The notes under the pieces: generated by a model | Database searches by the model: none | The model's input: the letters and a program-made list of their open reading frames with translations, nothing else | What the model was told of the DNA's origin: nothing | In this document: positions 998-20,710 of the stretch, piece after piece | Layout of the letters: each line of letters begins with the position of its first letter | Position numbering within the stretch: position 1 is the first letter of the stretch | Position numbers and translations under genes: made by a program | From: an uncultured Candidatus Saccharibacteria bacterium | GTDB lineage: Bacteria; Patescibacteriota; Minisyncoccia; Minisyncoccales; GWA2-38-27 | Assembly: GCA_964391095.1 (NCBI GenBank) | Contig: CAYMJA010000005.1 | Span: 1-45,887 of the forward strand | DNA: 45,887 nt | Direction of reading: 5' to 3'

Positions 998-1223
998 AAG
1001 ACACCCCTCCTTTCTTTGAAATTCTGTATATTCTATCTATATGAAAATTATTAAGGTTCTATAATTAGATTATCAAATATCTATTAGTCTTGTCAAGTGT
1101 ATGTGGTTAAAATAATATACTAATCAAAAGAGTTGTCTTAAAATATACACAAAGTTGACAAAATAAGATTTTTATGTAAAGATAAATTAGTTCTTTCATT
1201 GTTTAAAAAGGAGGTGAAGTTCT

Positions 1224-1730
1224 TTGACAACTTATCAACCCGATGGACCGTATGTGATACAATCCGGCAAACATGCTGGACAAGTTCTTGAATTGTTAAT
1301 GTTTCGTGATTATCCTTTTCTGAGCTTCATGCTCAAAAGACTCAAAGGACACTTCTGGAAGAAGAAGAATAAATTTCATTTGCATCTGGAGTGGTTGATG
1401 CAGGGAGGGGAAAATCGTCAGCCAAAAATGATTTGCCCTCAATGTAAAAAACAAACTGTCGAATATTTCTCAATTATTTATGGACATAGTGGCGGTTTCT
1501 CGATAAGTCCTCTTTATACCTGTTGCGGACAAGAAAAATGTAAAGAGCAATTGCGTGCTATGGCGTTAGGCAAACCGCAACGATTAATGCCCTTCCGTTC
1601 TTCAACGATAAAACGTTTTTCTACAATCGCTGGCAGGAAAGAGGTAGTTGGTTTGTATAAGCGTGTTTTCGGACTACCAGAACGTCTGACTCGTCAAGTT
1701 GCTTTTGAGTTTTTTAACCAAAAGACCTGA
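1224..1730 (+). CDS. Hypothetical Cys-rich, probable Zn-binding protein
   Basis: TTG start after AAGGAGGTG; GKHAGQ motif, CPQC and CCGxxxC; hairpin plus T-run terminator at about 1748-1778. Confidence 0.75.
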   Translation: MTTYQPDGPYVIQSGKHAGQVLELLMFRDYPFLSFMLKRLKGHFWKKKNKFHLHLEWLMQGGENRQPKMICPQCKKQTVEYFSIIYGHSGGFSISPLYTCCGQEKCKEQLRAMALGKPQRLMPFRSSTIKRFSTIAGRKEVVGLYKRVFGLPERLTRQVAFEFFNQKT

Positions 1731-1927
1731 AGGGAAGTTTAGAATTTAACCCCGTTCACTAAAAGTTCGGGGTTTTTTATAAATATAGGTAGTTTTGCTT
1801 CTGTACTTATTTCATAAAATAAAAAAAAGCCCCTTTGAATTAAGTCATCGAGGCTTATTTATTTTGGACAAAATCCATCGGGGCTTTTACTCAACAGCTT
1901 GGTCAGCTAAAGGGACCGTAGTGTGAC

Positions 1928-1963
1928 TTAAGCTGTATCAGGGGCGATGCGCAAAACAATCAT
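1928..1963 (-). CDS. Mini-peptide MIVLRIAPDTA (11 aa)
   Basis: Same SD and spacing as 882-917; two amino-acid differences. Confidence 0.6.
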   Translation of the reverse strand: MIVLRIAPDTA

Positions 1964-2016
1964 AATTATACCCCCTTTCTTTGAGTGATTTTTCTTTGAG
2001 TGATAGCCGCTCGAGT

Positions 2017-2049
2017 TTAAGCTCTATCCCAGGCAGTGTAAGCAACCAT
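2017..2049 (-). CDS. Mini-peptide MVAYTAWDRA (10 aa)
   Basis: GGGAGG SD before ATG; positional equivalent of 956-997. Confidence 0.55.
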   Translation of the reverse strand: MVAYTAWDRA

Positions 2050-2403
2050 AAAACTTCCCTCCCTTCTTTGGGATTTTGTATATTATAGAAATTATTAAGG
2101 TTCTATAATTAGATTATCAGATATCTATTATTCTTGTCAAGTGTATATGGTTAAAACAATATACTAATCAAAAGAGTTGTCTTGAAATATACACAAAGTT
2201 GACAAAATTTTATTTCTTGCATAGAATGTAAAATTAAATAGTTCTTTGAGAATTCAATAGGTAAAGAAATCTATAGATAGAACTTAGAAAGGAGGAAATA
2301 AAAACCGGTTTGTAGAATAGCACAACTGGTCATTCCAGCTCGTGAAGCGAAATCTGTTTTGATAGCAGTTAGAAGATTAAAATAACCGTAGGAGGTAGTT
2401 GAA

Positions 2404-2697: not shown

Positions 2698-2870
2698 ACC
2701 TACGTTATAACCCTGTAAGATTCCAAATCTTTTCAGGGTTTTTTCTTTTCCCAATTTTGGCAAATATTGACAGAATTTTGTTATTTAAGTAAAATATAAA
2801 ATCAGATAGTTCTTTAAAAACTGAATAAACGAAAAGAACTGAAAATTGAAAACAGAAAAGGAGAAAGAAA

Positions 2871-3605
2871 ATGGTAGATATTAAAAAAATGGTAGATGTT
2901 TTAGAGAAAGCACTGAGAGGTTTTTTAAATGGAGAGTCTTTCTCCTGTATTCTTAGACGGGACGATGGCTTTAGTTGGTCTTTGGATATAGGAATATATT
3001 TTACCGAGTATCCAGAATGGGAAGATTTTGAGAAAGACATTCTAAAGTATGTACAAAGGAGAGTATTAGATATAGGGGCTGGAGTAGGTAGGCACGCTTT
3101 ATATCTACAAAACAAAAGATTTGAGGTTCACGCAATTGATATTGTGCCTTTAGCTGTAGAAACAATGAAGCAAAGAGGAGTAAAGAATGTTTATCTGATG
3201 GATTTGAGGAAGCTGGATTTTCCCAATAACTACTTTGATTCTATCTTAATGATGTCTAATAATTTTGGTTTGGCCGGTACGATAGAAGGTACAAAGAAAC
3301 TCCTAAAGGTTCTTTATTATATTTCTACTCCGAAAGGACGGATAATTACCACTATTAGAGACCTTTCCCAAACTACTAATCCAGAACACCTCGCATATCG
3401 CGAGCGAAACAGAAAATTGGGTAGACCGGCGGGCCAAGAAAAATTAAGAGTAGAATACAAAGACGAAATTGGGGAGTGGTTCAATTTATTGATGGTTTCA
3501 CCTAAGGAACTAGAAGAGTTAGTTAAGGATACTGGTTGGAGTATTCTTAAGATAGTTGAAGAAAAAGATGGAACCCACTACGGAGTAATATTACAGAAAA
3601 GCTAA
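2871..3605 (+). CDS. Class I SAM-dependent methyltransferase
   Basis: VLDIGAGVG motif I, AIDI, FDSILMM; SD AAGGAG. Confidence 0.9.
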   Translation: MVDIKKMVDVLEKALRGFLNGESFSCILRRDDGFSWSLDIGIYFTEYPEWEDFEKDILKYVQRRVLDIGAGVGRHALYLQNKRFEVHAIDIVPLAVETMKQRGVKNVYLMDLRKLDFPNNYFDSILMMSNNFGLAGTIEGTKKLLKVLYYISTPKGRIITTIRDLSQTTNPEHLAYRERNRKLGRPAGQEKLRVEYKDEIGEWFNLLMVSPKELEELVKDTGWSILKIVEEKDGTHYGVILQKS

Positions 3606-3763
3606 GTTTAGCTAAAGACCTGAGAAAATTCTTGGGTCTTTTTTCTTTCCCGCTTTTTTTTCCGTCAAAAATAGCCTTGAAAAACCCCAATTTTTAATGT
3701 AAAATAAAAACCGGTTTAGAAAAATTTTAAAAACCAATCAATTTTAGCCAAAGCATTTAAAAA

Positions 3764-4222
3764 ATGAAAAAGATTAATTTTGAAGGGCTTAAAAAATTTG
3801 TGGCGGAAGCAAGGAGAAATACTTATGCTGGAGAGGGTAAATCAGTTGAGGATTTGAATTTGACTGGTTCAAAGCAACTTGAGTATAGAAAAGGTGATTA
3901 TTTCTATCAAGATATCTATTTTGCAGGAAAGGATAATTTTGTTGGTCAAGAAGTTGTCTATTTTGAAGACAGCCCAATTTGGAGTATGGTTTATTGCGGC
4001 TCTGCTGAGCCGCAAGAGGTCATCTCTTTTCTCAAAGAATCGCTATTAACTTTATCTGAAAGATGTCGTTTTGGAGGAGTGTGCGAATTTGAAGAAAATG
4101 ATTTCCGATATGAGGATAAAGGAGAGGGAACAATGAGACGATTTAGCGGTAAAGAGCGAATATTCAAGAAAGGAGACAATATCTATGAATTAGATTATCA
4201 CGGCGGTTTAATTGTTAAATAA
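3764..4222 (+). CDS. DUF5680-like protein
   Basis: A.RNTYAG, Y.D.Y.G...FVGQEVVY, WSM.Y.G, F.G.E.I, Y.GG pattern. Confidence 0.75.
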   Translation: MKKINFEGLKKFVAEARRNTYAGEGKSVEDLNLTGSKQLEYRKGDYFYQDIYFAGKDNFVGQEVVYFEDSPIWSMVYCGSAEPQEVISFLKESLLTLSERCRFGGVCEFEENDFRYEDKGEGTMRRFSGKERIFKKGDNIYELDYHGGLIVK

Positions 4223-4254
4223 AAATTAATAAAATTCAGTCCAAAGCAGAGTTT

Positions 4255-4797
4255 ATGTTAAAAAATAATATACTGAAAGTAGCAGTAGGTTCTCGAAATC
4301 CAGTTAAAGTTGGGGCAGTAAAGAACGCTTTTGAAAAAGTGTTTGGTCTTGATGTCAAAGTTATAGGTGTTTCTGTTCCCTCTAATGTTTCTGACATGCC
4401 TATGAATTTTGAAGAAATGTTTGAGGGCGCTAAGAATAGAGCAAAGCGGGCAAGAAAAGAATTAGATGCTGATTTTGGTGTTGGCTTAGAGGGTGGCTTT
4501 GAAGACGAAAAAATAGGTACCTTTTTAAGTGGTTTTACAGCAATTGTTGATAAAAAAGGAACCTGGGGCTATGCTAAAGGATCAGGACTTTTAATGCCTA
4601 AGGAAATTGTTAAAGAAGTCAGAGAACAAGGAAAAGAATTAGGCGAAGTGATGGATAAAATAAGAGGATTGAAAAATACAAAACAGCACGAGGGCTGTGT
4701 TGGCTTTATGACAGACAATTTAATTCCAAGGCAAAAGGCATTTGAAAAAACAATTATTTATGCGCTTTCACGCTTTACTAAAAAAGAAATATTTTAA
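4255..4797 (+). CDS. yjjX: Inosine/xanthosine triphosphatase (YjjX family)
   Basis: VGSRNPVKV, GAKNRA, GVGLEGG, ELGEVMD, KQHEG motifs. Confidence 0.9.
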   Translation: MLKNNILKVAVGSRNPVKVGAVKNAFEKVFGLDVKVIGVSVPSNVSDMPMNFEEMFEGAKNRAKRARKELDADFGVGLEGGFEDEKIGTFLSGFTAIVDKKGTWGYAKGSGLLMPKEIVKEVREQGKELGEVMDKIRGLKNTKQHEGCVGFMTDNLIPRQKAFEKTIIYALSRFTKKEIF

Positions 4798-4842
4798 TTG
4801 TGAAAATAAAAAAGAGAACTAAAATCTATACTGTTGAAATCT

Positions 4843-5205
4843 ATGAAAATTGTTTTTATCGCAGGTCCTTATTTTAGTAAAGGGGGCAGAGAAGAGATTG
4901 AGAAAAATATTCGCAATGCTGAGAAATATCAAATTGTCCTTGCTAATTCTCAAGTTCCTTTCTTTTGTGCCCATAGTCATACAGAGCACTTTGAGGAGAA
5001 AGCAAGTGCCCCTGAAGAATTTTACAGAAAAATGGACATGGAGATTTTAAAACGATGTTGTAATGCAGTACTTGCTTTACCTGATTGGGAAACTTCCAGT
5101 GGCGCTAAGGCAGAAGTAAAATGGGCTCAAGAAAATAATCTACCGGTTTTCTTTCCGAAGTCATTAGATGGTTTAACAGAGATAATAAATTGGGCAAAAA
5201 AATAA
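4843..5205 (+). CDS. DUF4406/DUF1937-like protein (nucleoside deoxyribosyltransferase-like fold)
   Basis: IVFIAGPY, LPDWETSSGAKAEV motif; ATG at 4843 preferred over TTG 4834. Confidence 0.75.
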   Translation: MKIVFIAGPYFSKGGREEIEKNIRNAEKYQIVLANSQVPFFCAHSHTEHFEEKASAPEEFYRKMDMEILKRCCNAVLALPDWETSSGAKAEVKWAQENNLPVFFPKSLDGLTEIINWAKK

Positions 5206-5391
5206 TATGTCAATAAAATTAAAAAATAAACCAATCAATTTTAGCCAAAGGATTTGAAAAATTATGGAAAATTGGCAGAGTTTAAGCAAGAATAAATCAG
5301 GGCTTGACAAGGGTTTTAGATTTGTTAAAATGAAAATAGTTAATCCCACTGCCTTCCTGTGTTTCGGCGCACGACGGCAGTTTTTATTTCT

Positions 5392-5952
5392 ATGAAGAAA
5401 GCTTTTGTTTTTATCGATGGTAGTAATTTTTATTTTAGGTTAAAAGAACTAACTTCTAGACTTAATAGCAAATACAGTTTACTTGATTTTAACTTTAGGA
5501 AATTTGCCGAGTGGCTTGCTAAGCCCAATCAGTTAGTCGAAATTCACTATTATCTTGGCACAGTTAGCCGCCGGAAAAACGATAGTAAAAGTGAGGAATT
5601 GTACGCTGACCAGCAAAGATTATTTAGAAAACTACAGAAACAAAATATTATTATTACTTTAGGACAACTAATTAGACACCCCGATAAAACTTATCATGAA
5701 AAAGGCGTTGATGTGCGTTTAGCTGTAGAAATGATTAGATTTGCTAGAGAAAATAAATATGATATCGCCTATTTGGTGAGTTCTGATACTGATTTGGTGG
5801 CGGCAGTAGAAGAAGTTCAATCAATTGGGAAAGCTATCCAGTATGTTGGTATTTCTAAGGGGCAGTCATTTGGACTTTCAAAAACTGCTGATGATGTTAG
5901 ATTATTAAGAGCAGAGGAGATGGAACGATTTTTTCCTAAAACCTTAGTCTAG
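5392..5952 (+). CDS. NYN domain (PIN-like) ribonuclease
   Basis: FIDGSN, EKGVDV, LVSSDTDL; own TTGACA/TAAAAT promoter at about 5304-5331. Confidence 0.9.
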   Translation: MKKAFVFIDGSNFYFRLKELTSRLNSKYSLLDFNFRKFAEWLAKPNQLVEIHYYLGTVSRRKNDSKSEELYADQQRLFRKLQKQNIIITLGQLIRHPDKTYHEKGVDVRLAVEMIRFARENKYDIAYLVSSDTDLVAAVEEVQSIGKAIQYVGISKGQSFGLSKTADDVRLLRAEEMERFFPKTLV

Positions 5953-6008
5953 ATATTTTAGACAAAGCAAAACAAAAGGTCGATTCGTTAATTAAAAATT
6001 TATCAATT

Positions 6009-6308
6009 ATGAACCAAGAAAAACCCGGGCAAAAAAGAGAAATTAAGATTAAGATAACTGATGATGTAATAAGAGGAGTTTATGCGAATTTTATGAAAGT
6101 AAGTCATACTAAGGAGGAGTTTGTTTTGGATTTTGCAAATATAGTTCCTCCAACCGGCATAATTTCAGCCAGGATTATTACCAGTCCTGGTCATCTAAAA
6201 CGGGTTATCGGAGCCCTAGAATATAATTTAAAAAAATACGAGGAAAGATTTGGAAAAATTAAAGAAGCGGAAGAAATAAAAGAAGAAAAAGTCGGTTTTC
6301 GTACATAA
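6009..6308 (+). CDS. DUF3467 family protein
   Basis: GVYAN...SHTKEEFVLDF, RIITSPGHLKR, YEERFGKI. Confidence 0.85.
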   Translation: MNQEKPGQKREIKIKITDDVIRGVYANFMKVSHTKEEFVLDFANIVPPTGIISARIITSPGHLKRVIGALEYNLKKYEERFGKIKEAEEIKEEKVGFRT

Positions 6309-6371
6309 TCAAAATTTAGCCCGAAGTTGAAGGAAGTTTAACCAAACAGTTTTAGGTAAAGTGTTTAAAAA

Positions 6372-6830
6372 ATGAAAAAGATTAATTTTGAAGGGCTTAA
6401 AAAATTTGTGGCAGAAGCAAGGAGGAATACTTATGCTGGAGAGGGTAAATCAGTTGAGGATTTGAATTTGACTGGTTCAAAGCAACTTGAGTATAGAAAA
6501 GGTGATTATTTCTATCAAGATATCTATTTTGCAGGAAAGGATAATTTTGTTGGTCAAGAAGTTGTCTATTTTGAAGACAGCCCAATTTGGAGTATGGTTT
6601 ATTGCGGCTCTGCTGAGCCGCAAGAGGTCATCTCTTTTCTCAAAGAATCGCTATTAACTTTATCTGAAAGATGTCGTTTTGGAGGAGTGTGCGAATTTGA
6701 AGAAAATGATTTCCGATATGAGGATAAAGGAGAGGGAACAATGAGACGATTTAGCGGTAAAGAGCGAATATTCAAGAAAGGAGACAATATCTATGAATTA
6801 GATTATCACGGCGGTTTAATTGTTAAATAA
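6372..6830 (+). CDS. DUF5680-like protein (copy 2)
   Basis: Protein identical to 3764-4222. Confidence 0.75.
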   Translation: MKKINFEGLKKFVAEARRNTYAGEGKSVEDLNLTGSKQLEYRKGDYFYQDIYFAGKDNFVGQEVVYFEDSPIWSMVYCGSAEPQEVISFLKESLLTLSERCRFGGVCEFEENDFRYEDKGEGTMRRFSGKERIFKKGDNIYELDYHGGLIVK

Positions 6831-6862
6831 AAATTAATAAAATTCAGTCCAAAGCAGAGTTT

Positions 6863-7405
6863 ATGTTAAAAAATAATATACTGAAAGTAGCAGTAGGTTC
6901 TCGAAATCCAGTTAAAGTTGGGGCAGTAAAGAACGCTTTTGAAAAAGTGTTTGGTCTTGATGTCAAAGTTATAGGTGTTTCTGTTCCCTCTAATGTTTCT
7001 GACATGCCTATGAATTTTGAAGAAATGTTTGAGGGCGCTAAGAATAGAGCAAAGCGGGCAAGAAAAGAATTAGATGCTGATTTTGGTGTTGGCTTAGAGG
7101 GTGGCTTTGAAGACGAAAAAATAGGTACCTTTTTAAGTGGTTTTACAGCAATTGTTGATAAAAAAGGAACCTGGGGCTATGCTAAAGGATCAGGACTTTT
7201 AATGCCTAAGGAAATTGTTAAAGAAGTCAGAGAACAAGGAAAAGAATTAGGCGAAGTGATGGATAAAATAAGAGGATTGAAAAATACAAAACAGCACGAG
7301 GGCTGTGTTGGCTTTATGACAGACAATTTAATTCCAAGGCAAAAGGCATTTGAAAAAACAATTATTTATGCGCTTTCACGCTTTACTAAAAAAGAAATAT
7401 TTTAA
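6863..7405 (+). CDS. yjjX: Inosine/xanthosine triphosphatase (copy 2)
   Basis: Protein identical to 4255-4797. Confidence 0.9.
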   Translation: MLKNNILKVAVGSRNPVKVGAVKNAFEKVFGLDVKVIGVSVPSNVSDMPMNFEEMFEGAKNRAKRARKELDADFGVGLEGGFEDEKIGTFLSGFTAIVDKKGTWGYAKGSGLLMPKEIVKEVREQGKELGEVMDKIRGLKNTKQHEGCVGFMTDNLIPRQKAFEKTIIYALSRFTKKEIF

Positions 7406-7450
7406 TTGTGAAAATAAAAAAGAGAACTAAAATCTATACTGTTGAAATCT

Positions 7451-7813
7451 ATGAAAATTGTTTTTATCGCAGGTCCTTATTTTAGTAAAGGGGGCAGAGA
7501 AGAGATTGAGAAAAATATTCGCAATGCTGAGAAATATCAAATTGTCCTTGCTAATTCTCAAGTTCCTTTCTTTTGTGCCCATAGTCATACAGAGCACTTT
7601 GAGGAGAAAGCAAGTGCCCCTGAAGAATTTTACAGAAAAATGGACATGGAGATTTTAAAACGATGTTGTAATGCAGTACTTGCTTTACCTGATTGGGAAA
7701 CTTCCAGTGGCGCTAAGGCAGAAGTAAAATGGGCTCAAGAAAATAATCTACCGGTTTTCTTTCCGAAGTCATTAGATGGTTTAACAGAGATAATAAATTG
7801 GGCAAAAAAATAA
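7451..7813 (+). CDS. DUF4406/DUF1937-like protein (copy 2)
   Basis: Protein identical to 4843-5205. Confidence 0.75.
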   Translation: MKIVFIAGPYFSKGGREEIEKNIRNAEKYQIVLANSQVPFFCAHSHTEHFEEKASAPEEFYRKMDMEILKRCCNAVLALPDWETSSGAKAEVKWAQENNLPVFFPKSLDGLTEIINWAKK

Positions 7814-7897
7814 TTGAGAATTAAAATACAAAAGCCCACCGCTGGGCAATTTTTATTTGAAATCGCCAAGAGGGCGATTTTTTGGTAGAATGGAATA

Positions 7898-8476
7898 ATG
7901 GAAGAAAAAATTAAGAAAATAATATGGATTTCTGGCAGGTGTGGTTATGGTAAAACTGCATTTGCCAATTCTATAATTAAAGAATTTGAAGAGAAAAATA
8001 AAGAAACCTGTAAATTAGAGGGAAAAGACTTTGTAAACCTTTTGGTTGAAAATATAAGGAATAAGAATCCTATTGAGAATTTTGTGTTTTATTTTCAAAG
8101 CTATGATTTACTGGTGTTGGATGATATAGATTATTATTTATTAGGTAAAAAAGCTACTCAAAAAGCAATAAAAGAGGCTATACAGAAAATAACTAATAAT
8201 AACACTAAAGTGATTTTGATTACCCAAAAAAGAGCAAGAAAGTTGAGGAAATTAAAATTTGATAGCGACGAATGTTTCTATAAGCGGTTAAAAGCTCCGA
8301 CCGTAGAAATTAAAAGAAATTTAGTGAAAAGCTGGTTAAGGGTAGAAAGGTTAGTAATCCCAGAAGAAAAAACTAACGAAATTATAAATAAATCTAATAA
8401 TCTATTTCAACTTAAAGGATTATTTAATCAAATTTCTTTTCCCACAAAGGAAAATAGAATTAACTCTGGATTTTAA
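7898..8476 (+). CDS. DnaA/Hda-like AAA+ ATPase domain only
   Basis: Walker A GRCGYGKT, DFVNLLVENIR, Walker B YDLLVLDDID...KKATQ; no DnaA domains I or IV. Confidence 0.7.
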   Translation: MEEKIKKIIWISGRCGYGKTAFANSIIKEFEEKNKETCKLEGKDFVNLLVENIRNKNPIENFVFYFQSYDLLVLDDIDYYLLGKKATQKAIKEAIQKITNNNTKVILITQKRARKLRKLKFDSDECFYKRLKAPTVEIKRNLVKSWLRVERLVIPEEKTNEIINKSNNLFQLKGLFNQISFPTKENRINSGF

Positions 8477-8575
8477 CAGAAAACAAAAAGTCGAAGAATT
8501 AATTAAGAAAAATTAAACAATTAATTTTAGATAAAACCAAACAAAAAGTCGGGAGATTAATTAATTATAAAATTT

Positions 8576-8749
8576 ATGACTGAATTAACTATAAAGGAGA
8601 CACAACAAATCGTTGACAAATGGATTAAAACCGTTGGAGTTCGATATTTTTCTGAACTTACAATTTTGGCTCAGTTGGTCGAAGATGTTGGAGAAGTTGC
8701 CAGAAGAGATGCCAGCCGCCATAAAAATAACTTAAAATTAAGAAAATAG
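8576..8749 (+). pseudogene. Internally deleted MazG-like nucleotide pyrophosphohydrolase (YpjD type)
   Basis: MTELTIKETQQIVDKWIKTVGVRYFSELTILAQLVEDVGEVAR joined directly to RDASRHKNNLKLRK*; the ELAD motif half is missing. Confidence 0.75.
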
Positions 8750-9494: not shown

Positions 9495-9696
9495 TAACGA
9501 GATAAATGTTAGTTAGGGTTAGGGTCTTCCCAAATTCAAAAAAGGAAGCAATAACTAAAAAGTCAGAAGATGGTAAAGTATATTTCTAAACCAAATTTTT
9601 CTTGACAAAAAATCATTGATATGGTAAGATAAAGCAAGCTATTGTTCTTTGAAATTTTAAAATTGATTGAAAAAACGAAGGAAAGGAGAAAGAAAA

Positions 9697-10014: not shown

Positions 10015-10249
10015 AATCTTTCGAAAAAAACCATACCGTATCCAACCTAATAGCGACGATTAGGCGCGAGAGAAAAAATCTTGCGCCATTTTTTTTGACA
10101 AAAAATAATCGGTGTGATAAAAATAAAAACACTGATCTTTGAAAATTGAAGATGGAAGGTTAAAAACTTAACGAAAGAAAGGAGAAGGAACGATGGTAAG
10201 ACTCAGAAAACCTAAGAAAGAAGACAGAAAGATGAAAGGAGAAGGAACG

Positions 10250-11980: not shown

Positions 11981-12254
11981 TAGAATACTGCTTCAAGCCC
12001 GGCGATAACTTCAAAGGGCTTTTTTATTTGCCCCGTTAGTTGAAGAAAATAGGGACGTTTCTGAATTTTATAGTTATAGTGATTTGCCAGAAGGTAGTTC
12101 TCTGACAATTCAGGCACAAGAAAAAATCTTTTGCGCCCTTTTTTATCCTGTAAATTTGACAAGAAATTATTGATGAGTTAAGATAAAATATTGCTCTTTG
12201 AAAATTTTAGTTGCGGAGATATTAAAAAAATCTTTCAGAAAGGAGGTGATTGAT

Positions 12255-13413
12255 ATGGAAAATAAAGAAGAGGGAAATAAAGAAGAACTAAATTCACTGA
12301 AAGCAGCATTCTGCGCCTTTGATAAGGGAATCATATCGGAAAAGGACTTCCGTAGAATTTTAGCTTCTGCATCAACAGATGTTCTAACCCGGTTCCTTAG
12401 GGCATACAACCATGACTATGATTCTCAGTTTAGCCGTTTAGGAACGCTTATTGTCCTGGAGTTGGGAAGAAAAAAGGACGAAAAGGCAGATGAAGCCCTT
12501 GTTTTTGCTGCCAGCGGCGACGAATTTACATACTCTCCAATAAAAAGCAATGCCCTTGGTATTTTGGGAGGGCGCATGAAAACCTGGAGGCCCAACGAGC
12601 TTGCTCGTGCTGCCACAGAAGGGGGTTACGATGTGGCAGACATTGCTCTTCAAATCCTGGGAAAAGAGAAAGTTGAAAAACTTGTGAAATCAGATCCCGA
12701 GTTGGCTGTGGTAGCTTTTGAGCATGACCGCGTAATGTTTGACAAAACATTAAATGCTGTTTTCGAATCCCTCGAAGAACATGAACTCGCCTTCCTTATT
12801 ATGGAACACCCCAACCACAAAGTCAGAGGGTGGGCTATTCACTATTCTAAGGGGAGAATGGGGAAAGATATCGGAGAAGCTCTTTTGCACGCTGCCACTC
12901 AGGATGAGAACAGGATAGTAAGATCTCGTGCTTTTGATGAATTGAAAAAGCACATGCCTGGTTGGGATCTACAAAAACTCATCTCCGCTGCCATGATGGG
13001 AAACTTTGATGTTACAGAACTTGTTCTCTTTATTCTGGAAAAAGAAAAAGCAAGAGAAGTAATCCTAGGCCGATAGAAACCTATCGGCCCATCTTTTTCC
13101 AAAATTTAATGAGGCGGAAAGCAATGTTCTGACTGTTCTGGAAAATCCTGCTTCAAAAGGCATTCACAACATAGTCTTCACCGGCGGAGTTCTCGAGGGA
13201 AGCAGATACTATTTTGGGACACTTTGCTCCGTAGTTCTGAGAAGATTTAAAGCCCATTGGGATGCTCCAAAAATTAGATGCATAAAACCAAAGGGCCACG
13301 CCGTGCTTGGAGCACTGATAATGGCTGCAACCAATGCCGGAATTGAAGTCAATGATGACTTCATCTCTGCGCTTCTGGAAAGTTGGGACAGGGTCAAGCG
13401 TGCTAACGCATGA
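12255..13413 (+). pseudogene. HEAT-like helical repeat protein with a frameshift near 13068
   Basis: SD AAGGAGGTG. First frame stops at 13076; the shifted frame 13069-13413 stays open, continues the internal repeat and ends just before a terminator at about 13430-13462. Confidence 0.65.
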
Positions 13414-13558
13414 TTTTGACCAGTCAATTAGGAGGGATTTTAAAAATTCCTCCCTTTTTTTTGACAAAAAATGGTTAATAAAGTAAAATAATCTATTGCT
13501 CTTTGAAAATTTAAATAGTCAAGAATTAAAGAAAATCTTTCAGAAAGGAGAAAGAGAA

Positions 13559-16500
13559 ATGAAGAAGCTAATGGTTGTTTTGGGAATGTTAGTTTTAGTT
13601 GTGCTATCAGGTTGCGGCAAAAGCACAGAAAAGGCCATAATTGGCAAATGGAAAGAAGTAGATAGCACCGAAACGATAGAGTTTTTTAAAGACGGGACAG
13701 TAACAGTAATTGATAAAGGAATGTCTATGTCGGGGAACTATAAGTTTGTAGGCAAGAACCGGATAAAAATGGAACTCGGCGGCTTAGGAGCTTTAATGGG
13801 ACCGATTGTTTCCAAGATATCTATTTCTGGAAACGAATTGAGTATGACTATGCCTGATGGAAAAATTGAAAGATATCAGAGATTGAAAAAATCAAGCAGT
13901 ATAGAGAAAAAAAGGAAAGTATTTAACAGGCGTAGAGAAAAGAAAACAAAAGAGCAAACTCAAGTTTTAAAGCCGATGCCAGAAAAAAAAGCTCCATTTT
14001 TTGAAGTTAAGTTTTCTTGGGGAAAATTTCGAATTGGAGATTTCTCTGTTGCTCTTAACTATCTAGACCGTGAACCGAGCAAAGCAAATTTGTATTTCGC
14101 TATTACGAAAGTTAAGCATACCGGTTCAGAAATTGGACCTGTAGCGATAACTTTAACCGATGACCATGAAAACAACTACTATGGTTCGCTTAATATTACT
14201 CCTTGTGATGATTTTCCTATTCGTTTGCTTCCAAAGAATTTCGCTTGGATAAGAAAAGTAAGCATAACTATGCCAAAGGCAGCTCCGATTGAGAGGATTC
14301 AGTTAGAAGACGGCAAAAAAATAGCATTCAAAAAGCTTAAGATAGTTAAGCTCAGATTTAAATCAGATTTTGGGAAAGCTCTTTTGCGGCCAGGAAAATC
14401 CGCTCCTGTAGGAAAGTTTCTTTTTTTTACTACCAATGGGATTATACCTGACCTTTATACCTGGGCCCTTTCAGTGACTGTAGAAAATAAGGAATATAAC
14501 GAATTAAGAGCTGATGTGAAATGCGCTATCCAATTTACTGATGGGACGATTAGTTCTCTAGGGTTACCAGTAAGTGTAGCAATCCCCGGATTATCCAAAA
14601 AGACAGTCCAAATAAAGCTTCGTTCTTTGCAAGATAGAAAAGTACCTCAATTAAAAACATTACTAATATTCTATCGTGATTATAACTCTGGCCAAACAAC
14701 TCTTAAATTATGGCCAATTTCCGACAAGAACTTGCCTCCTCGGGTAGGACAGGGAGCAAAAGAGGAAATCTTTATTGATGCCTATCAACGCAATGGCGGT
14801 CGTGAGCGTATGGAAAATCCTGTTGAATTGCCTCGTTGGTACGTTGGAGTGATTAGACCAAAGGATGAGCAGGACTTACTAATTCAGAGATTTCCAAAAG
14901 CCATTATTGTTTGGGACAAACAGCATTATGCTTCAAGGGCTTATGTTTTAAAAGGGCCTATTTTGAAGAAATATATAGAATTGGGAGGTCCATATCATTG
15001 CTCCGAGAGCCAGAAAGCTCTTTTCTTGGGCGCGCCAACCAGTGAACTAAAACCCTGCAAATCCGCTTTTGGTACCAAAGGTAACTTTGTTGCCTTTAAG
15101 GGCGGAGCGATATTTTTGCAAAATAATCGAACTTTTGTTCTTATGGGCAAAATAGGCCAGAAATGGGATGAACAAGAAGATGCCTTAGGTTTTCCTATTA
15201 GCGATATTCAACCTACTGTTTCCGATGTTCTCGGTTCTGACAACAAGGGCTGGGTTCAGGAATTTGAAGGCGGTTATATTTACTACATCACGAAAGGCGA
15301 ACAGGTAGGACAGGTTTTTGGAATATCTGGAACTATAGCGAAAATATACTCAAAAGCAAGTTGGCTTGGTCTTCCCATATCAGATACTTATAGTAGTCCG
15401 GAGACAGGCCACGATCAGTGTGATTTCGAGAAGGGCTATATAGCAAGCTCTGACGGAAAAACATTTCAGGTATTCCACTATGAGCCGGGTGTGATTGCCT
15501 TCGTTTCTGACAGAGACGGCAATAAAGAAATATATCTAACAGATGCCAGTGGTAGAAAACAAACAAATTTCACCAACAACCCATCTGACGATTGGTGTCC
15601 AGCTTGGTCACCCGATGGAAAAAAAATTGCTTTTGTGTCTAATAGAGGTGGCAAAGAAGGCATATATCTTATGAACGTAGATGGTAACGATCAAAGATTT
15701 TTGACGGCTGGAAAAGAACCCTCTTGGTTTCCCGATGGCGAGAAAATTATATTCTCGAAACCTATGACTTTTATTAGAAAGATTGTGTGGGAAACAAAGA
15801 AAGAGTCGTTGAAGCGAATATTTGCTATAAAAATTGATGGAACCGAGATTAGACAAATTTCTCCCGATGCTAGCACTGCAGAGATTGACGACTTTAAATG
15901 GCTACTAAGGAGACATTTCGTTGCGCCGGTGGTTTCGCCAGACGGCTCTAAAATAGCGTTTGCTGGGGGAGACTGGGGGAGTGGACATCCTTACAGTATT
16001 AATTTAATGAACATAGATGGAAAGCATGTGGAGAGCTTATCGAAACGGTTAGGAGAAAAATCGCAAAGCGGGGCAAATCCTTCTTGGTCTCCTGACGGCA
16101 CGAGAATCGCTTTCAGGTGTGACAGGGGCTATGATGGTCCAATTGGTAATGTGGGACGTATTCACATCGCCGACCTTAAAAAGTCACTAATTTCCGACCC
16201 ATATTTAAAGGTTATTTGGCGTTGTAGTGGACTGGACTGGTCGTCCGACGGTTCATCTCTTGTGTTCTCTGGGTATAAAGAAACAGGATATACATACACG
16301 GGAACTGTCGATATTTACATTGTGCGTCCCGGTTTAAAGGTCATTCGTAAGATAACTAAAGGGCAAGGGAATAACTATGATCCATCATGGACAACCGGGA
16401 AACAGGAAGGAAAAACAAAGATAGTTTCTAAAAAGAGAAGTGTTCCGAGCGAGAAGATATCAGAAATTAGTATTCCGGGCAAGTATATTCTGGAAACAGT

Positions 16501-16999
16501 TAATTCTAAAGGAAAGCGATTAAGTTGGGAGCCCGGAGCAATGTTCCTTAAAAAAGACGGTGTTGTTTCAGCTCAATATTCTGGCAGATGGAAAATTGAA
16601 GGTAATTTGATAAACTTCTATGAAGAAAGCAAGAAAGTAGGAAAAGGAAAACTCTCCAGTATTGCTATAGAGAATTGGTCGGTCTATGACGAGCCATCTT
16701 GGTCTGCCAATAAGATTGTTCCCCAAAATGGAGCAACAATAATTAAGCAATCTTCAGGAGAAAATATAGTGTTTAGTGCTTATCTTTCTCCGCAAAATAA
16801 TTCTTTTGACTTAAAGTTAAAAGAAGATGGCACGTTTTTAATGAAAGGAATTTTGAAAGAAACCTGGAAAATTGAAAATGGAACTTTCCAGATTTATAGA
16901 GGCGGCAGAAAAACTGATTTCAGCGACGGAAGAATTGATGGCAATAACGTAGTATTTAAGTTTGAAGACGGTTTTCTTCGACTCACAAGACAAGATTAA
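13559..16999 (+). CDS. Large multidomain lipoprotein: LGFP-like repeats plus TolB/PD40 beta-propeller
   Basis: Lipobox LSGC; LGAPTS/LGFPIS/LGLPIS...EFEGG repeats; PAWSPDGKKIAF repeats. Confidence 0.85.
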   Translation: MKKLMVVLGMLVLVVLSGCGKSTEKAIIGKWKEVDSTETIEFFKDGTVTVIDKGMSMSGNYKFVGKNRIKMELGGLGALMGPIVSKISISGNELSMTMPDGKIERYQRLKKSSSIEKKRKVFNRRREKKTKEQTQVLKPMPEKKAPFFEVKFSWGKFRIGDFSVALNYLDREPSKANLYFAITKVKHTGSEIGPVAITLTDDHENNYYGSLNITPCDDFPIRLLPKNFAWIRKVSITMPKAAPIERIQLEDGKKIAFKKLKIVKLRFKSDFGKALLRPGKSAPVGKFLFFTTNGIIPDLYTWALSVTVENKEYNELRADVKCAIQFTDGTISSLGLPVSVAIPGLSKKTVQIKLRSLQDRKVPQLKTLLIFYRDYNSGQTTLKLWPISDKNLPPRVGQGAKEEIFIDAYQRNGGRERMENPVELPRWYVGVIRPKDEQDLLIQRFPKAIIVWDKQHYASRAYVLKGPILKKYIELGGPYHCSESQKALFLGAPTSELKPCKSAFGTKGNFVAFKGGAIFLQNNRTFVLMGKIGQKWDEQEDALGFPISDIQPTVSDVLGSDNKGWVQEFEGGYIYYITKGEQVGQVFGISGTIAKIYSKASWLGLPISDTYSSPETGHDQCDFEKGYIASSDGKTFQVFHYEPGVIAFVSDRDGNKEIYLTDASGRKQTNFTNNPSDDWCPAWSPDGKKIAFVSNRGGKEGIYLMNVDGNDQRFLTAGKEPSWFPDGEKIIFSKPMTFIRKIVWETKKESLKRIFAIKIDGTEIRQISPDASTAEIDDFKWLLRRHFVAPVVSPDGSKIAFAGGDWGSGHPYSINLMNIDGKHVESLSKRLGEKSQSGANPSWSPDGTRIAFRCDRGYDGPIGNVGRIHIADLKKSLISDPYLKVIWRCSGLDWSSDGSSLVFSGYKETGYTYTGTVDIYIVRPGLKVIRKITKGQGNNYDPSWTTGKQEGKTKIVSKKRSVPSEKISEISIPGKYILETVNSKGKRLSWEPGAMFLKKDGVVSAQYSGRWKIEGNLINFYEESKKVGKGKLSSIAIENWSVYDEPSWSANKIVPQNGATIIKQSSGENIVFSAYLSPQNNSFDLKLKEDGTFLMKGILKETWKIENGTFQIYRGGRKTDFSDGRIDGNNVVFKFEDGFLRLTRQD

Positions 17000-17003
17000 A
17001 CTG

Positions 17004-17043
17004 ACAATAAAAGGGCTGAATTTTCCAGCCCTTCTTTTTTTTC
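17004..17043 (+). terminator. Intrinsic terminator, near-identical to 19983-20020
   Basis: AAGGGCTG...CAGCCCTT followed by T-run. Confidence 0.8.
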
Positions 17044-17195
17044 TCCAATTTTCTACAGAATCCGATAGGATATTTTTGTAGAAAAAGTTTTGACAAGAGC
17101 TAAAAAAATTGTAAGATTAAAATAGTACTTTGAAAACTGCATATTAGCAGATTTGAAAGAAATGAAAATCTTGATTGAAAAGAAAGGAGAAAGAA

Positions 17196-19976
17196 ATGAA
17201 AAGATTGATGGTGTTAGGAGTACTTATAGTAGGTCTTCTGATTGGTAGGCGAGCAGATGCCTTTTTTAGGGAAGATACAATTAAAAAAACCAGCAAAGAG
17301 CTTAAGGCCTCTCAATATAAGGGTCCTCCCCACATAGACAGCATAGAGCCATCCTTAGGAGCGCCAAATATACCTATTACAATAAAGGGAAGAAATTTAG
17401 GGTCCCGCTGGGTGAGATTTGGATGGCAAACAGCCGAAGTAATAGATTACAGCGATGATAAAATTGTAGTTAGGGTTCCTCCTCCCCCTTATCGGAAGAA
17501 CAGAACAGTTAAAGTAAAAGTAGGAACACTTGAGATTAGCAATAGTCTTTTATTTACCTATAAGGATCCTGAGATAAAATCAATTTTTCCCTCTTCGGGG
17601 AAAATAGATACAGAAGTAACAATAGAGGGTCGGTATTTCGGAGTTAAGGGTATCCATTCCATCCTTCCCCATCCTACCTTTTGGGTAAAATTTGGTAAAT
17701 CTTGCGTTGGGCTTGATATAAAAATATGGGAAGACAAAAAGATAGTTGTAAAAGCCCCTTCGGATTATGGAACAGGCAAATTAGATGAGAGAATGACGAA
17801 GTGGATGATAAAATTTGCTATCGCTGGAGCTACTGGGGGGATAACTATTCCCGAGTTTGTTCTTGATGTTATTAAAGACCTTGCCACGAGTGGGGTAAGG
17901 ATACCTCCGGGAAAAAGTAAAATATTAGTAGATGTAGCAATAAGAACTCCTGTCGGAACAAGCAATACCAAAGTATTTACCTATCAGCTTTCAGATGAGA
18001 ATTTGCCACCCGAGGGGGAGGAAGAAGTCCCAGAACATTTAATCTTTGCTGTGTATGCTACCCGGGCGGGACATGTTGGTGATAAAACTGCAAATGGGCA
18101 TCTGATTCAATCCAACGATCATTTTGTAGCCCTACCTTCAAATAAAGTCCTTTGCAGCAAAGGAGGCCGCCAGTTTGAGGTACGCATTACTTACCAAGGA
18201 AAGTCTGTAATAGCCCCGGTATGGGATGTGGGTCCCTGGAATATCTATGATAATTATTGGGAACCTGAACTCAAAAGAGAGATTTACGACCATCTTCGTT
18301 TTGGAGGTCAACCTGGGCTTGGTCAAGGAATTCCAGAGGCTCAAGCAGCCAAGTTGAATAATTATAACAAAGGATTTAGTGGAGATTTTTTGCCCCATAA
18401 ACTTCCTCAAGGTCAGTATGTTAAAAGTCCTGCTGGGATTGATTTAGCCGATGGCACCTGGAATGATCTTGGAATGACTGACAATGATTGGGTAACAGTA
18501 GAGTTTTTGTGGACTATCTCTAAACCGGTTAGTCCTGAAGAAGGACTGGTTACAGCTTTGGTAATAGACAGGTCGGGTAGTATGAGGGGAGAGAAAATTA
18601 AAAAAGCCAAGATTGCTGCTTATATTTATGTTAATACCAGCCAACCGGGAAGAGATTCAGTTTCATTGGCAGCTTTTTCCAGTGATGGCAAAAGTATCGC
18701 TGAACCGATTTCCATAAATAATGAAGGAAAAGAGATTCTAAAAAAAGATATTTCTTCTCTTTCAGCCGGAGGAAATACCAATGTTGGCTCAGGATTAACT
18801 ATAGCTCTTGGTCATCTTTCTTCTTCTAATCGGAAAGATAAGAAAGCAGTTCTAATATCTGATGGCAGGCATAATACCGGTACCTATAAGCCGGAAGTTG
18901 CTGAGTTTCAAAAAAGAGGATGGCCAATTTATACGGTGGCTTTTGGCGGAGACGCTGACCGAGAAATGCTTAACTGGATTGCCAATCAAACTGGTGGCCA
19001 GTCCCTCGCGCTTGATATGGCTAATATAGGCAGCGGTTATCACAAGATTAATGTTATGGCTCACAACGGCTCGATTTACCGCAGTTACAATGATTTTATT
19101 CGGCCGGGGCAAAAATTAACTTATAATATTCCGGTTGAGCCAGATATGAAAAGGGTGGGATTTTTCACCAACTGGCAGGGAAGCAAAATGGAGACAATTC
19201 TCTTTTCTCCCAGCAAAACGATGATAAATCGCTCCAATATCAGTAATCAGGGAAGATTTATTGAGGGAGAAACCCACAGTTGCTTTGAGATAGATAACCC
19301 TCAGTGCGGTAATTGGCAGGCCATTATTGCCGGATATGACCTTCCCTCAAAAGGAGAACAGGTTAATTTTCACTCCTTTTGCCAGTCAGATATTTTTTCC
19401 AATGTTTTGAGCTTTCAGCCCAGATATTCTCAAAATCAGGAAGTTCAAATTGGAGTAAAGTTAGCTGAAGTGATAAATGGTCGTCTTTCACCTTTAAGAG
19501 GAGCTCAACCTACAGCTGAAATCAGAAAACCTTCTCCTTCTTTGGAAAAGTTTATTTCTAAGGTTAAAGGAAATAGATTACAGTCCCGGGATATTTTTAC
19601 AATTTTCCAGGAGGTTTCCGGATTTACTGGAAAAATTACTCTTTATGACGATGGGCTTCATAAAGATGTTAGGCCTGGAGACGGGATTTATGCTAATAGT
19701 TACAAGGATACCACTATCAATGGTCCCTATCTGGTTACCATTAATTTTCAGGGTTATACTGCTCAAGGGATGCCGGTTAAAAGAACTCTTCAAGAATCTT
19801 TTCAGGTCGGACCCATTGAACAAAATTCTTTTACTGTCAGCGATTTTCTTAACTTGATAAACCAGCAGGGCAATAACAGACAGGCGCCTAGATATATACC
19901 TGGCCAAGAGCCAGAGGAGATAAAACCTGATGAGATTATAAAGAATCTGCTTGGCCAATTTTTAAAACAGAAATAA
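17196..19976 (+). CDS. Secreted protein with IPT/TIG domains, RlpA-like double-psi barrel region and vWA domain
   Basis: Signal peptide; two P.I.SI.P..G IPT repeats; TANGH...WDVGPWN...GIDLADG; MIDAS DRSGS; LYDDG...DGIY. Confidence 0.8.
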   Translation: MKRLMVLGVLIVGLLIGRRADAFFREDTIKKTSKELKASQYKGPPHIDSIEPSLGAPNIPITIKGRNLGSRWVRFGWQTAEVIDYSDDKIVVRVPPPPYRKNRTVKVKVGTLEISNSLLFTYKDPEIKSIFPSSGKIDTEVTIEGRYFGVKGIHSILPHPTFWVKFGKSCVGLDIKIWEDKKIVVKAPSDYGTGKLDERMTKWMIKFAIAGATGGITIPEFVLDVIKDLATSGVRIPPGKSKILVDVAIRTPVGTSNTKVFTYQLSDENLPPEGEEEVPEHLIFAVYATRAGHVGDKTANGHLIQSNDHFVALPSNKVLCSKGGRQFEVRITYQGKSVIAPVWDVGPWNIYDNYWEPELKREIYDHLRFGGQPGLGQGIPEAQAAKLNNYNKGFSGDFLPHKLPQGQYVKSPAGIDLADGTWNDLGMTDNDWVTVEFLWTISKPVSPEEGLVTALVIDRSGSMRGEKIKKAKIAAYIYVNTSQPGRDSVSLAAFSSDGKSIAEPISINNEGKEILKKDISSLSAGGNTNVGSGLTIALGHLSSSNRKDKKAVLISDGRHNTGTYKPEVAEFQKRGWPIYTVAFGGDADREMLNWIANQTGGQSLALDMANIGSGYHKINVMAHNGSIYRSYNDFIRPGQKLTYNIPVEPDMKRVGFFTNWQGSKMETILFSPSKTMINRSNISNQGRFIEGETHSCFEIDNPQCGNWQAIIAGYDLPSKGEQVNFHSFCQSDIFSNVLSFQPRYSQNQEVQIGVKLAEVINGRLSPLRGAQPTAEIRKPSPSLEKFISKVKGNRLQSRDIFTIFQEVSGFTGKITLYDDGLHKDVRPGDGIYANSYKDTTINGPYLVTINFQGYTAQGMPVKRTLQESFQVGPIEQNSFTVSDFLNLINQQGNNRQAPRYIPGQEPEEIKPDEIIKNLLGQFLKQK

Positions 19977-19982
19977 AAATTA

Positions 19983-20020
19983 ACAATAAAAGGGCTGGAA
20001 AATCCAGCCCTTCTTTTTTT
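19983..20020 (+). terminator. Intrinsic terminator
   Basis: AAGGGCTGGA AAA TCCAGCCCTT followed by T-run. Confidence 0.85.
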
Positions 20021-20163
20021 GAGGTTTTACGACCGACCTTAAACAAAAACTTGACAAACTTGCCTGAATTGATAAAATAAAGTTAGTGCTGAGAACAGCT
20101 TATGTTAAGTTTAGCGAAGCGTTTCTCAGTTTTGATAACTAAAAAAGGAAAGGAGAGATAAAA

Positions 20164-20586
20164 ATGAAGAAGATGGTAACTCTGGGACTGATTGTCTTAA
20201 TGGTGGTTATTTCCACTAGCTGCGCAACTAAGGGTCGGACAGGTGCTCTACTCGGTTCCGTGCTCGGAGCAGGTACTGGAGCAATTATCGGTCACCGATC
20301 AGGCCATGCAGCTGAAGGCGCTCTTGCTGGCGGTGCTCTCGGAGGAATCGGCGGTTATGTTGTAGGCAATGAGATGGATAAAGGCCAAGCCAAACAAACA
20401 ACCCAACAAGATATTGAAGCTGCTAGGCAAGCCGCCAATACTACTGTGGTTAATATTCATAACAGCAACGGAAGCATTACTCCGGTAGTAATAAAGCAAG
20501 TAGGAGGGAGATGGATAGGGCCTCGCGGAGAGGAATATATCTCTTGTCCCACCGAAGAACAGTTGAAACCAGTTTATGGATTCTAA
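20164..20586 (+). CDS. Glycine-zipper putative lipoprotein
   Basis: Signal ending STSC; GALLGSVLGAGTGAIIG...GALAGGALGGIGG. Confidence 0.8.
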   Translation: MKKMVTLGLIVLMVVISTSCATKGRTGALLGSVLGAGTGAIIGHRSGHAAEGALAGGALGGIGGYVVGNEMDKGQAKQTTQQDIEAARQAANTTVVNIHNSNGSITPVVIKQVGGRWIGPRGEEYISCPTEEQLKPVYGF

Positions 20587-20710
20587 CCCAGTCCAAAAAA
20601 GCCTTCAAAAAGCGCGGAAGATTGATAATATCATTCGCGCTCTTTTTTTGATAAAAAATAATTAATTTGTTAAAATAGAATTAGTACCTTAATAAGAAGA
20701 AAGAGGGGTG

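Follow-up and report, generated by a model that had tools for sequence, protein, structure and literature searches.

Promoter-proximal boxA-like words in the mRNA leaders of GC-rich accessory genes of a member of the Patescibacteria

Introduction

boxA and the Nus factors are textbook machinery of ribosomal RNA (rRNA) and phage transcription, and the complexes that they form on rRNA operons (rrn) speed elongation, make it resistant to pausing and act as RNA chaperones. The boxA-bearing transcripts of CRISPR (clustered regularly interspaced short palindromic repeats) arrays are untranslated and Rho is the target there, while the NusG paralogues RfaH (with its ops signal), LoaP and UpxY are recruited by leader signals to long accessory operons. 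Here, we describe boxA-like words in messenger RNA (mRNA) leaders on a 45,887-nucleotide (nt) stretch from an uncultured Candidatus Saccharibacteria bacterium (assembly GCA_964391095.1, contig CAYMJA010000005.1, positions 1 to 45,887 of the forward strand), which is referred to in its entirety as the window. It is contig C5 of a genome of 567,614 bases on 18 contigs with ca. 35% G+C and an estimated completeness of 96%. A previous annotation made from the letters alone (the sequence-only reading) had proposed that boxA-like elements follow the promoters of accessory cassettes on this contig.

The boxA consensus of E. coli is given as UGCUCUUUAACA; in B. subtilis, the rrn leaders have the consensus AUGAUCUUUGAAA behind a small hairpin, and binding of BsNusB to it was seen by nuclear magnetic resonance (PMC13753749). 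Searches in gamma-proteobacteria used the consensus GYTCTTTAANA (Baniulyte et al. 2017, PMC5725501), and an 8-nt core of boxA is what NusB-NusE recognizes (PMC3177189). For rrn complexes, both an intrinsic-termination and a Rho-blocking aspect have been stated, and the role of the boxA complex in bacteria that do not depend on Rho is described as an open question (PMC13753749). Nus factors are already known to have mRNA targets, but these are few and mostly autoregulatory: gamma-proteobacterial genomes contain 0 to 7 perfect boxA matches, mostly before Nus or translation genes, with translational repression followed by Rho termination (PMC5725501). In total, 407 putative boxA sites are listed there.

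Results

The motif of the mRNA leaders and the boxA of rRNA leaders

Co-oriented single-gene units are found in the window between its start and 20.7 kb. In each of them, a terminator-like hairpin and a sigma-70 promoter close to the consensus are followed by a short leader rich in A/U, a strong Shine-Dalgarno (SD) sequence and the gene. Seven strong copies of a single 12-mer, (A/T)G(T/C/A)(T/A)CTTT(G/A)A(A/G)A(A/T), are found in these predicted leaders, upstream of the SD sequence upon inspection (Table 1), and copies reading (A/T)G(T/C/A)(T/A)CTTT followed by GA(A/G)AA fit the boxA consensus. All strings listed by the sequence-only reading are present at the positions that it had given. Seven of its eight mRNA-leader sites are strong (2241, 2809, 9644, 10134, 12193, 13498 and 17125), but the one at 1190 is degenerate, and its view that nearly every cassette carries the motif was overstated: 7 of the 10 plus-strand promoter-like sites between 1 and 20000 do (at least 10 matches to a 12-position -35/-10 consensus, by which such sites were scored), and the motif is missing after the promoters at 320, 3677, 5304 and 20051. 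Across 82 promoter-like sites, a degenerate consensus derived from rrn sites has 7 sense and 0 antisense matches within 0 to 25 nt downstream where 0.09 are expected (Poisson p 9e-12); promoter and motif are thus associated beyond chance.

The genome's own rRNA operon is unassembled beyond the 16S leader, and the rrn boxA set was therefore taken from relatives; a whole-genome rRNA search found no 23S gene and left the truncated 16S gene unreported. The relatives' 16S and 23S leaders comprise a promoter, one or two hairpins with a T-run, a word fitting GWWCTTTGAMAA and then the strand that pairs with the trailer (16S ends taken from Infernal coordinates). Of 30 rRNA leaders of relatives, 25 fit this word at 11 or more of 12 positions; none of the 30 reverse complements does so, and among 600 shuffles 10 do. 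The distance from the word to the rRNA gene downstream is ca. 37 to 227 nt, with the leader hairpins before it and the promoters seen there well upstream. We built a weight matrix from 26 boxA sites of 16S and 23S leaders of related genomes only and scanned both strands of the whole genome. Among all positions, the genome's own 16S leader comes out on top and the mRNA-leader sites occupy ranks 2 to 7 and 10, with two sites on contig C4 as ranks 5 and 6. Since a first matrix derived from mRNA sites was circular for its own 9 sites, we relied on the rrn-derived matrix, whose ranking is independent of the sites initially listed. The rRNA-leader site that had been noted at 45305 is real and represents the genome's best match to the family's rrn boxA (26.1 bits), and matrix ranking and relatives' leaders identify the motif as the lineage's own rrn boxA word. 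Single sites also resemble described consensus sequences: the copy at 2809 fits GYTCTTTAANA of PMC5725501 exactly, the copy at 10134 with its flank matches 12 of 13 positions of the B. subtilis rrn consensus quoted in PMC13753749, and the copies at 12193 and 13498 share their first 8 nt, UGCUCUUU (preceding T included), with the E. coli consensus. Judged from these sequence comparisons, the view that the mRNA-leader elements are genuine boxA words, i.e., the same signal as in the 16S and 23S leaders of the family, is supported.

A likeness to boxA could nevertheless be convergent or incidental if the word were a 5' leader element unrelated to Nus factors, such as an mRNA stabilizer or translation enhancer that engages the S1/30S platform or protects from an RNase dependent on the 5' end. 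The position of the word at the 5' end and near the SD sequence in all promoter-proximal cases would suit such a role, as would its A/U-rich, unstructured character (no conserved palindrome or hairpin was seen upon inspection of the aligned sites) and its presence before short genes. However, the word and its extension past the 12-mer (AAYTGAATA in several copies) also occur in the 16S and 23S leaders, which are untranslated and have no SD sequence nearby, and a matrix made from rrn sites alone picks the mRNA sites as the genome's best, so that a separate factor for an identical word would be less parsimonious. We consider this explanation improbable.

In the relatives, the 16S and 23S genes of the family form separate transcription units, each with a promoter of its own, with one or more terminator-like leader hairpins and a T-run directly upstream of boxA and with a trailer complementary to the leader; in several of them, a terminator separates the 16S gene from a protein gene or tRNA downstream. 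On contig C12 between 7500 and 8200, two successive genes, those of a 70-residue protein and of DAHP synthase, have the order of rrn leaders in front of them: a terminator-like hairpin with its T-run comes first, then a boxA-like word and lastly an SD sequence. No promoter was recognized at these boxA-like sites.

Table 1. Coordinates of promoter-like sites, boxA-like words, terminators and related features. Positions are those of the window except in the last line; bit scores and genome ranks are those of the rrn matrix unless stated otherwise.
Feature	Coordinates	Strand	Remarks
Promoter-like site	1155..1183	+	-35 TTGACA consensus, -10 weak; not among promoter sites listed
Degenerate motif copy GTTCTTTCATT	1190..1200	+	<10 bits
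boxA-like GTTCTTTGACAA	1219..1230	+	16.5 bits; overlaps likely TTG start of 168-residue open reading frame (ORF)
Promoter-like site	2199..2227	+	11/12
boxA-like GTTCTTTGAGAA	2241..2252	+	18.1 bits, rank 7 (scan position 2238); leader of gene for 97-residue Cys-rich protein, 2404-2697
Promoter-like site	2767..2795	+	11/12
boxA-like GTTCTTTAAAAA	2809..2820	+	20.7 bits, rank 3 (scan position 2806); before methyltransferase gene 2871-3605
Terminator-like hairpin and T-run	3614..3641	+	closes methyltransferase unit
Promoter-like site	9602..9630	+	10/12, TG-extended
boxA-like GTTCTTTGAAAT	9644..9655	+	15.5 bits, rank 16 (scan position 9641); before 105-residue gene 9697-10014, no Pfam family
Terminator-like hairpin	10063..10087	+	closes 9697-10014 unit
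Promoter-like site	10095..10124	+	abuts terminator 10063-10087
boxA-like GATCTTTGAAAA	10134..10145	+	17.4 bits, rank 10 (scan position 10131); before gene for 595-residue ankyrin-repeat protein, 10193-11980
Promoter-like site	12156..12184	+	
boxA-like GCTCTTTGAAAA	12193..12204	+	13.3 bits, rank 30 (scan position 12190); 24.2 bits with site-derived matrix; before gene for 273-residue protein, 12255-13076
Terminator-like hairpin	13068..13089	+	closes 12255-13076 unit
Terminator-like hairpin	13431..13453	+	directly before 13461 promoter
Promoter-like site	13461..13489	+	abuts terminator 13431-13453
boxA-like GCTCTTTGAAAA	13498..13509	+	20.2 bits, rank 4 (scan position 13495); before gene for 1146-residue PD40/LGFP protein, 13559-16999
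Terminator module after 1146-residue gene	16998..17041	+	86% identical to 19977-20020
Promoter-like site	17090..17117	+	
boxA-like GTACTTTGAAAA	17125..17136	+	23.2 bits, rank 2 (scan position 17122); before gene for 926-residue TIG/VWA protein, 17196-19976
Paralogous terminator module after 926-residue gene	19977..20020	+	
16S rRNA promoter-like site	45151..45178	+	
Leader hairpin, then T-rich run	45271..45292	+	just upstream of rrn boxA; same order in relatives
rrn boxA GAACTTTGACAA, 16S leader	45305..45316	+	26.1 bits, genome rank 1 (scan position 45302)
16S rRNA gene, 5' part	45387..45887	+	runs off contig
S10 and NusB genes	contig C1 (L003 1498-1833; L001 1489-1908)	-	

Recurrence in this genome and in relatives

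Outside the window, the same arrangement is found at C4(-)15270, C4(-)13683 and C3(-)67320, while at C12(-)8170 and C12(-)7569 the motif comes after hairpins. We scanned other genomes with exact patterns rather than with the matrix. In 39 genomes of the family, the sense word (CTTTGARAA) follows a promoter 24 times in 14 genomes, including 5 times in this genome, compared to a single match of the reversed-pattern control; its reverse complement has 3 matches (reversed-pattern control 0). Among 400 other genomes drawn evenly from the phylum, the sense word has 30 matches in 25 genomes (reversed control 3). The promoter-boxA arrangement is thus widespread yet sparse, denser in the family and densest in this genome among the genomes searched. 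Where it leads mRNAs, the motif ends 10 to 66 nt before the start codon, and in the relatives it mostly precedes genes of small proteins without Pfam families.

One might suspect that the word is an operator in DNA, read by a repressor or activator of a small regulon at or just after the transcription start. It does lie at +1 to ca. +25 of consensus promoters, and the copies on contig C4 form a 5-5-5 palindrome by manual reading (AGTTC-TTTGA-GAACT). Yet this palindrome is restricted to the C4 copies, and the orientation of the word is sense (7 versus 0 here, 24 versus 3 in the family). Moreover, its distance from the -10 element is variable: by manual count, the gap between the end of the -10 and the G of the motif is widest in the window at 2241, 2809 and 9644 (13 nt), narrower at 10134 (10 nt) and at the pair 12193/13498 (8 nt) and narrowest at 17125 (7 nt), and it reaches 19 nt at C4(-)15270. 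A spread of 7 to 19 nt is more in keeping with a word in RNA than with a promoter element of fixed position. Together with the occurrence of the word ca. 37 to 227 nt upstream of genes in rRNA leaders and behind the terminator hairpins on C12, these features leave very little to be said for an operator, to which we give hardly any credence.

Several sites lie in leader modules that are paralogous to each other, namely, 12193 and 13498, the pair on C4 and, more weakly, 2241 and 2809. The word may therefore be a passenger without a role of its own, present by chance in a promoter-leader module that was copied before several genes. The extent of the duplications (78% identity between 12155-12245 and 13460-13550; 92% between the intergenic modules 1040-1171 and 2084-2215, the first of which has the 1155 promoter at its end; the C4 pair), the terminators common to unrelated proteins and the concentration of seven copies within one 15-kb stretch are all in line with this scenario. 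On the other hand, the motif has stayed fixed inside the paralogous modules together with the -35, -10 and SD elements while the remainder drifts, and the sites of this genome have a mean pairwise identity of 0.84 in the 12-mer compared to 0.41 in the next 30 nt. Sites on contigs C3 and C12 are not paralogous; of 38 other genomes of the family, 13 have the arrangement in front of unrelated genes, and it also recurs, though more sparsely, in the rest of the phylum. Finally, a small secreted protein has orthologous leaders in three genera, in which 15 consecutive nt spanning the word are invariant, while the leader further downstream diverges and contains a 16-nt indel. We regard the passenger scenario as highly unlikely.

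An intergenic segment of ca. 390 nt at 780-1171 is repeated at 1817-2215 with 92% to 94% likeness and ends in the plus-strand promoters at 1155 and 2199. Both copies also hold minus-strand promoter-like sites (first hexamer at 1096 and 2140), and a related site of this minus type is found on contig C11 near 16775.

Genes led by boxA

At least 12 genes of the 0.57-Mb genome have a site of 15 bits or more in front of them, and these sites are strongly biased toward GC-rich genes: 10 of 57 genes in the top decile of G+C carry one compared to 2 of 504 others (Fisher 3e-9; antisense control 1 and 2). These gene counts by G+C are approximate, given that the scripts used the longest ORFs as gene calls (594 calls, some of them spurious over RNA genes). 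The third-position G+C of boxA-led genes is high as well. Some other genes of high G+C carry no site, and the composition may therefore reflect foreign origin, high expression or both. No site of at least 15 bits was found before translation or Nus genes in the genome scan, and the best scores upstream of nusB, nusG, rpsJ and nusA are below 0. The earlier remark that the motif was not seen before core genes thus holds for core translation and Nus genes, with the motif tied to GC-rich genes instead.

Less straightforward is the description of the target set as foreign or surface genes. The set is indeed compositionally atypical and GC-rich, but surface functions cover it only in part, as it includes a methyltransferase, an ankyrin protein, DAHP synthase and a BadF/BcrAD-type ATPase. 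In the window, the 1146-residue PD40/LGFP protein has an N-terminus resembling a lipoprotein signal, while the 273-residue protein has no Pfam family over its cut-off. Boxes elsewhere in the genome lead a NamZ muramidase with a pilin-type head, its 118-residue neighbor sharing a promoter-leader-head module, a 1408-residue BadF/BcrAD-DUF2229 protein, the 70-residue protein and DAHP synthase. The 1146-residue and 926-residue proteins are unrelated (BLASTP E 0.36) yet share similar promoter-boxA-SD leaders and 86% identical terminators, and from such comparisons the regulatory flanks resemble sockets that can be reused for different cargo. Both proteins are large and secreted, with MKKLMV and MKRLMV as their first residues.

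Nus factors and the proposed function

The genome encodes NusB, NusE (S10) and NusG as the co-option of Nus complexes would demand, and NusA as well, with a single NusG match in total; rho, whose presence had also been in question, was not found. Its NusB aligns with solved NusB structures, and the Phe residue stacking on U8 of boxA in the ternary complex of Aquifex is conserved in it. Each boxA-led gene has a cassette of its own, ordered as terminator, consensus sigma-70 promoter, boxA at the predicted start of the untranslated leader, SD sequence, gene and terminator. We suggest that the nascent leader RNA would be bound by NusB-S10, which with NusG and NusA would convert RNA polymerase into a modified elongation complex of the rRNA type. 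The benefit may lie in fast, pause-resistant elongation that is independent of a following ribosome, perhaps with RNA chaperoning, and elongation of this kind would suit strongly expressed genes of foreign composition. That the word lies inside the transcript, that it is bound by NusB-S10 and that its effect on expression is positive are all inferred from sequence. On balance, we view NusB-S10 loading and an rRNA-type elongation complex on strongly expressed, compositionally atypical accessory genes as a serious though tentative proposal that falls somewhat short of being probable. The pattern nonetheless suggests that about a dozen GC-rich accessory genes borrow the rRNA transcription machinery.

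Without rho in the genome, antitermination against Rho as known from E. coli cannot be the function of these sites; in a lineage that lacks Rho and closes its cassettes with intrinsic terminators, the likely benefit is elongation. The idea of co-opted rRNA-type Nus complexes put forward by the sequence-only reading is therefore borne out with regard to boxA identity, Nus genes and the link to accessory genes, but a classical anti-Rho form is ruled out, and an antitermination reading seems plausible only in a modified, Rho-independent form.

Several observations weigh against NusB-S10 loading as proposed above. Neither rho (this genome has no match, and the 39 family genomes gave no match over the cut-off) nor SuhB (PF00459; not found in this genome, which is 96% complete) appears to accompany the other factors, and the E. 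coli complex would thus be short of one component and of its best-understood purpose. Compared to Aquifex, NusB has Asp at the position of Glu81 and Ser at that of Lys118, and S10 reads KAYDYK where solved S10/NusE read KAYDHR. In the Aquifex complex, it is S10 His15-Arg16 that contact boxA U8 and NusB E81 (PMC3177189). These substitutions may represent an RNA pocket that has possibly co-varied. Transcription starts are predicted only (all 20 sequencing runs that contain the stretch, which comes from a salt-marsh community, are recorded as DNA), and with spacings of 7 to 8 nt the first base of the motif might coincide with the start or precede it. With three site pairs being paralogous, there are also fewer independent sites than copies. 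Every cassette ends in a strong intrinsic terminator, and terminator-like hairpins are not enriched inside boxA-led genes (7 in 17.6 kb, i.e., 0.40 compared to 0.48 per kb elsewhere). Many boxA-led genes of the relatives are short (36 to 230 residues), and processivity seems unnecessary for them. In three relatives (L035, L044 and L053), a T-box-like leader (RF00230, 57 to 64 bits, E ca. 1e-11; gathering score 93) directly follows a promoter-proximal boxA-like word, and a terminator-resistant polymerase would defeat such a leader. Taken together, cassette-end terminators, the lack of an excess of internal hairpins, short genes and T-box-like leaders speak against the idea that these sites serve to read strongly through intrinsic terminators. 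Lastly, the boxA in the 5' untranslated region (UTR) of E. coli suhB represses translation rather than aiding expression (PMC5725501).

This last precedent is the basis of a different explanation in which NusB-S10 does bind, but the tethered Nus complex hinders access of the 30S subunit to the SD sequence as at suhB, which would tie translation to the free pool of NusB and S10 and hence to rRNA synthesis and ribosome assembly. At suhB, boxA lies 6 nt from the SD sequence, and insertion of up to 100 nt did not abolish repression (PMC5725501). The distance of 10 to 66 nt between motif and start codon in the mRNA cases described here is within ca. 100 nt of the SD sequence, and in several relatives the motif even abuts it (L038, L039 and L041, with 10 to 13 nt to the ATG). 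L044 has a further boxA-like word (ca. 1822-1835), 14 nt before the SD sequence and behind the T-box-like leader at 1548-1750. Repression at the level of translation would also be compatible with the short length of many boxA-led genes, and it needs neither Rho nor internal terminators, which fits the lack of rho and of an excess of internal hairpins. Conversely, consensus promoters and strong SD sequences suggest selection for high output, and the final drop of suhB expression in E. coli is partly driven by Rho (PMC5725501), which was not found here. The lack of boxA before nusB, nusG, rpsJ and nusA further means that the autoregulatory logic of gamma-proteobacteria is missing. We therefore think that repression of this kind is unlikely, and we continue to favor, with the reservations given, an rRNA-type elongation complex on these mRNAs.

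In L035 and L044, the T-box-like leader precedes genes of small CxxC-rich proteins and not of an aminoacyl-tRNA synthetase. A closed loop of the mRNA similar to that of rRNA precursors was considered and rejected, as the energies of leader-trailer duplexes of the seven window cassettes compared to shuffled trailers gave z-scores of -1.05 to +0.65.

Other features of the window

The promoter at 320-349 matches all 12 consensus positions and is followed by a GC-rich stretch of ca. 235 nt that ends in a hairpin with T-run near 553-590. No convincing ORF and no Rfam match were found for 320-592 (best E 0.6, elsewhere in the searched stretch), and with a fold z-score of -2.57 this segment is a candidate for an unannotated structured RNA. 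Further downstream, a block of three genes at 3732-8950 (DUF5680, NTPase_I-T/DUF84 and DUF7768-like) is duplicated in tandem with a start-to-start distance of 2608 nt; 97% identity was reported over 300 nt, and ORF lengths are the same in 3764-5205 and 6372-7813. The segment at 13090-13430 lies between two plus-strand terminators and has no plus-strand ORF listed. It could be a gene remnant, and a minus-strand ORF of 104 residues with 44% G+C at 13153-13467 may be spurious.

Discussion

A limited literature search found no paper linking boxA with Patescibacteria and none pairing the exact 12-mer with the term "boxA". The sites described here represent an enlarged collection of boxA words on mRNAs, in a bacterium where neither rho nor suhB was detected. 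A 0.57-Mb genome that keeps nusB and carries the rrn boxA word on about a dozen strongly promoted genes of foreign composition, with rho and suhB not found, makes a natural test case for Rho-independent Nus function on mRNAs. The word would also offer a simple way to mark accessory genes that are actively expressed in uncultured Patescibacteria, among them those of large surface proteins with a supposed role in host attachment. A bolder generalization holds that Patescibacteria without Rho use an "expression socket" of consensus promoter, boxA, SD sequence and intrinsic terminator to domesticate horizontally acquired GC-rich genes, which would be transcribed by an rRNA-type polymerase modified by NusB-S10 with pause-resistant elongation independent of ribosomes. 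In that case, the Nus/boxA system would have a general Rho-independent role in mRNA synthesis, and boxA would mark the expressed accessory genome of these organisms. We regard this generalization as possible but rather doubtful.

Among described systems, the closest is the rrn boxA complex of E. coli and B. subtilis with NusB, NusE/S10, NusA, NusG, SuhB and S4. The core word is common to both, NusB, S10, NusA and NusG are encoded here, and the word likewise lies on the sense strand of what is predicted to be an untranslated segment. Unlike in rrn leaders, however, the mRNA copies are located at the predicted extreme 5' end of protein-coding mRNAs without a preceding hairpin; there is no leader-trailer helix, Rho and SuhB were not found and S10 has Tyr-Lys in place of the His-Arg of Aquifex. 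The position of boxA in the 5' UTR within tens of nt of the SD sequence is shared with mRNA targets of the suhB type (Baniulyte et al. 2017, PMC5725501). In contrast to the mRNA boxA sites of gamma-proteobacteria, those described here lead at least 12 genes (sites of at least 15 bits), none of them a Nus or translation gene, in a genome where rho was not found. Similar to the boxA of CRISPR arrays in gamma-proteobacteria, an rrn-type boxA appears to be co-opted outside rRNA operons for non-core loci (PMC13753749), though the transcripts are translated here and rho was not found. Specialized NusG paralogues finally offer a parallel in that, as elongation factors, they are brought by a signal in the leader to genes that were acquired horizontally or encode surface structures (PMC12691694). 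Compared to RfaH, LoaP and UpxY, this genome has one NusG match, the signal is a boxA word rather than an ops or LoaP element, and the transcription units are mostly single genes.

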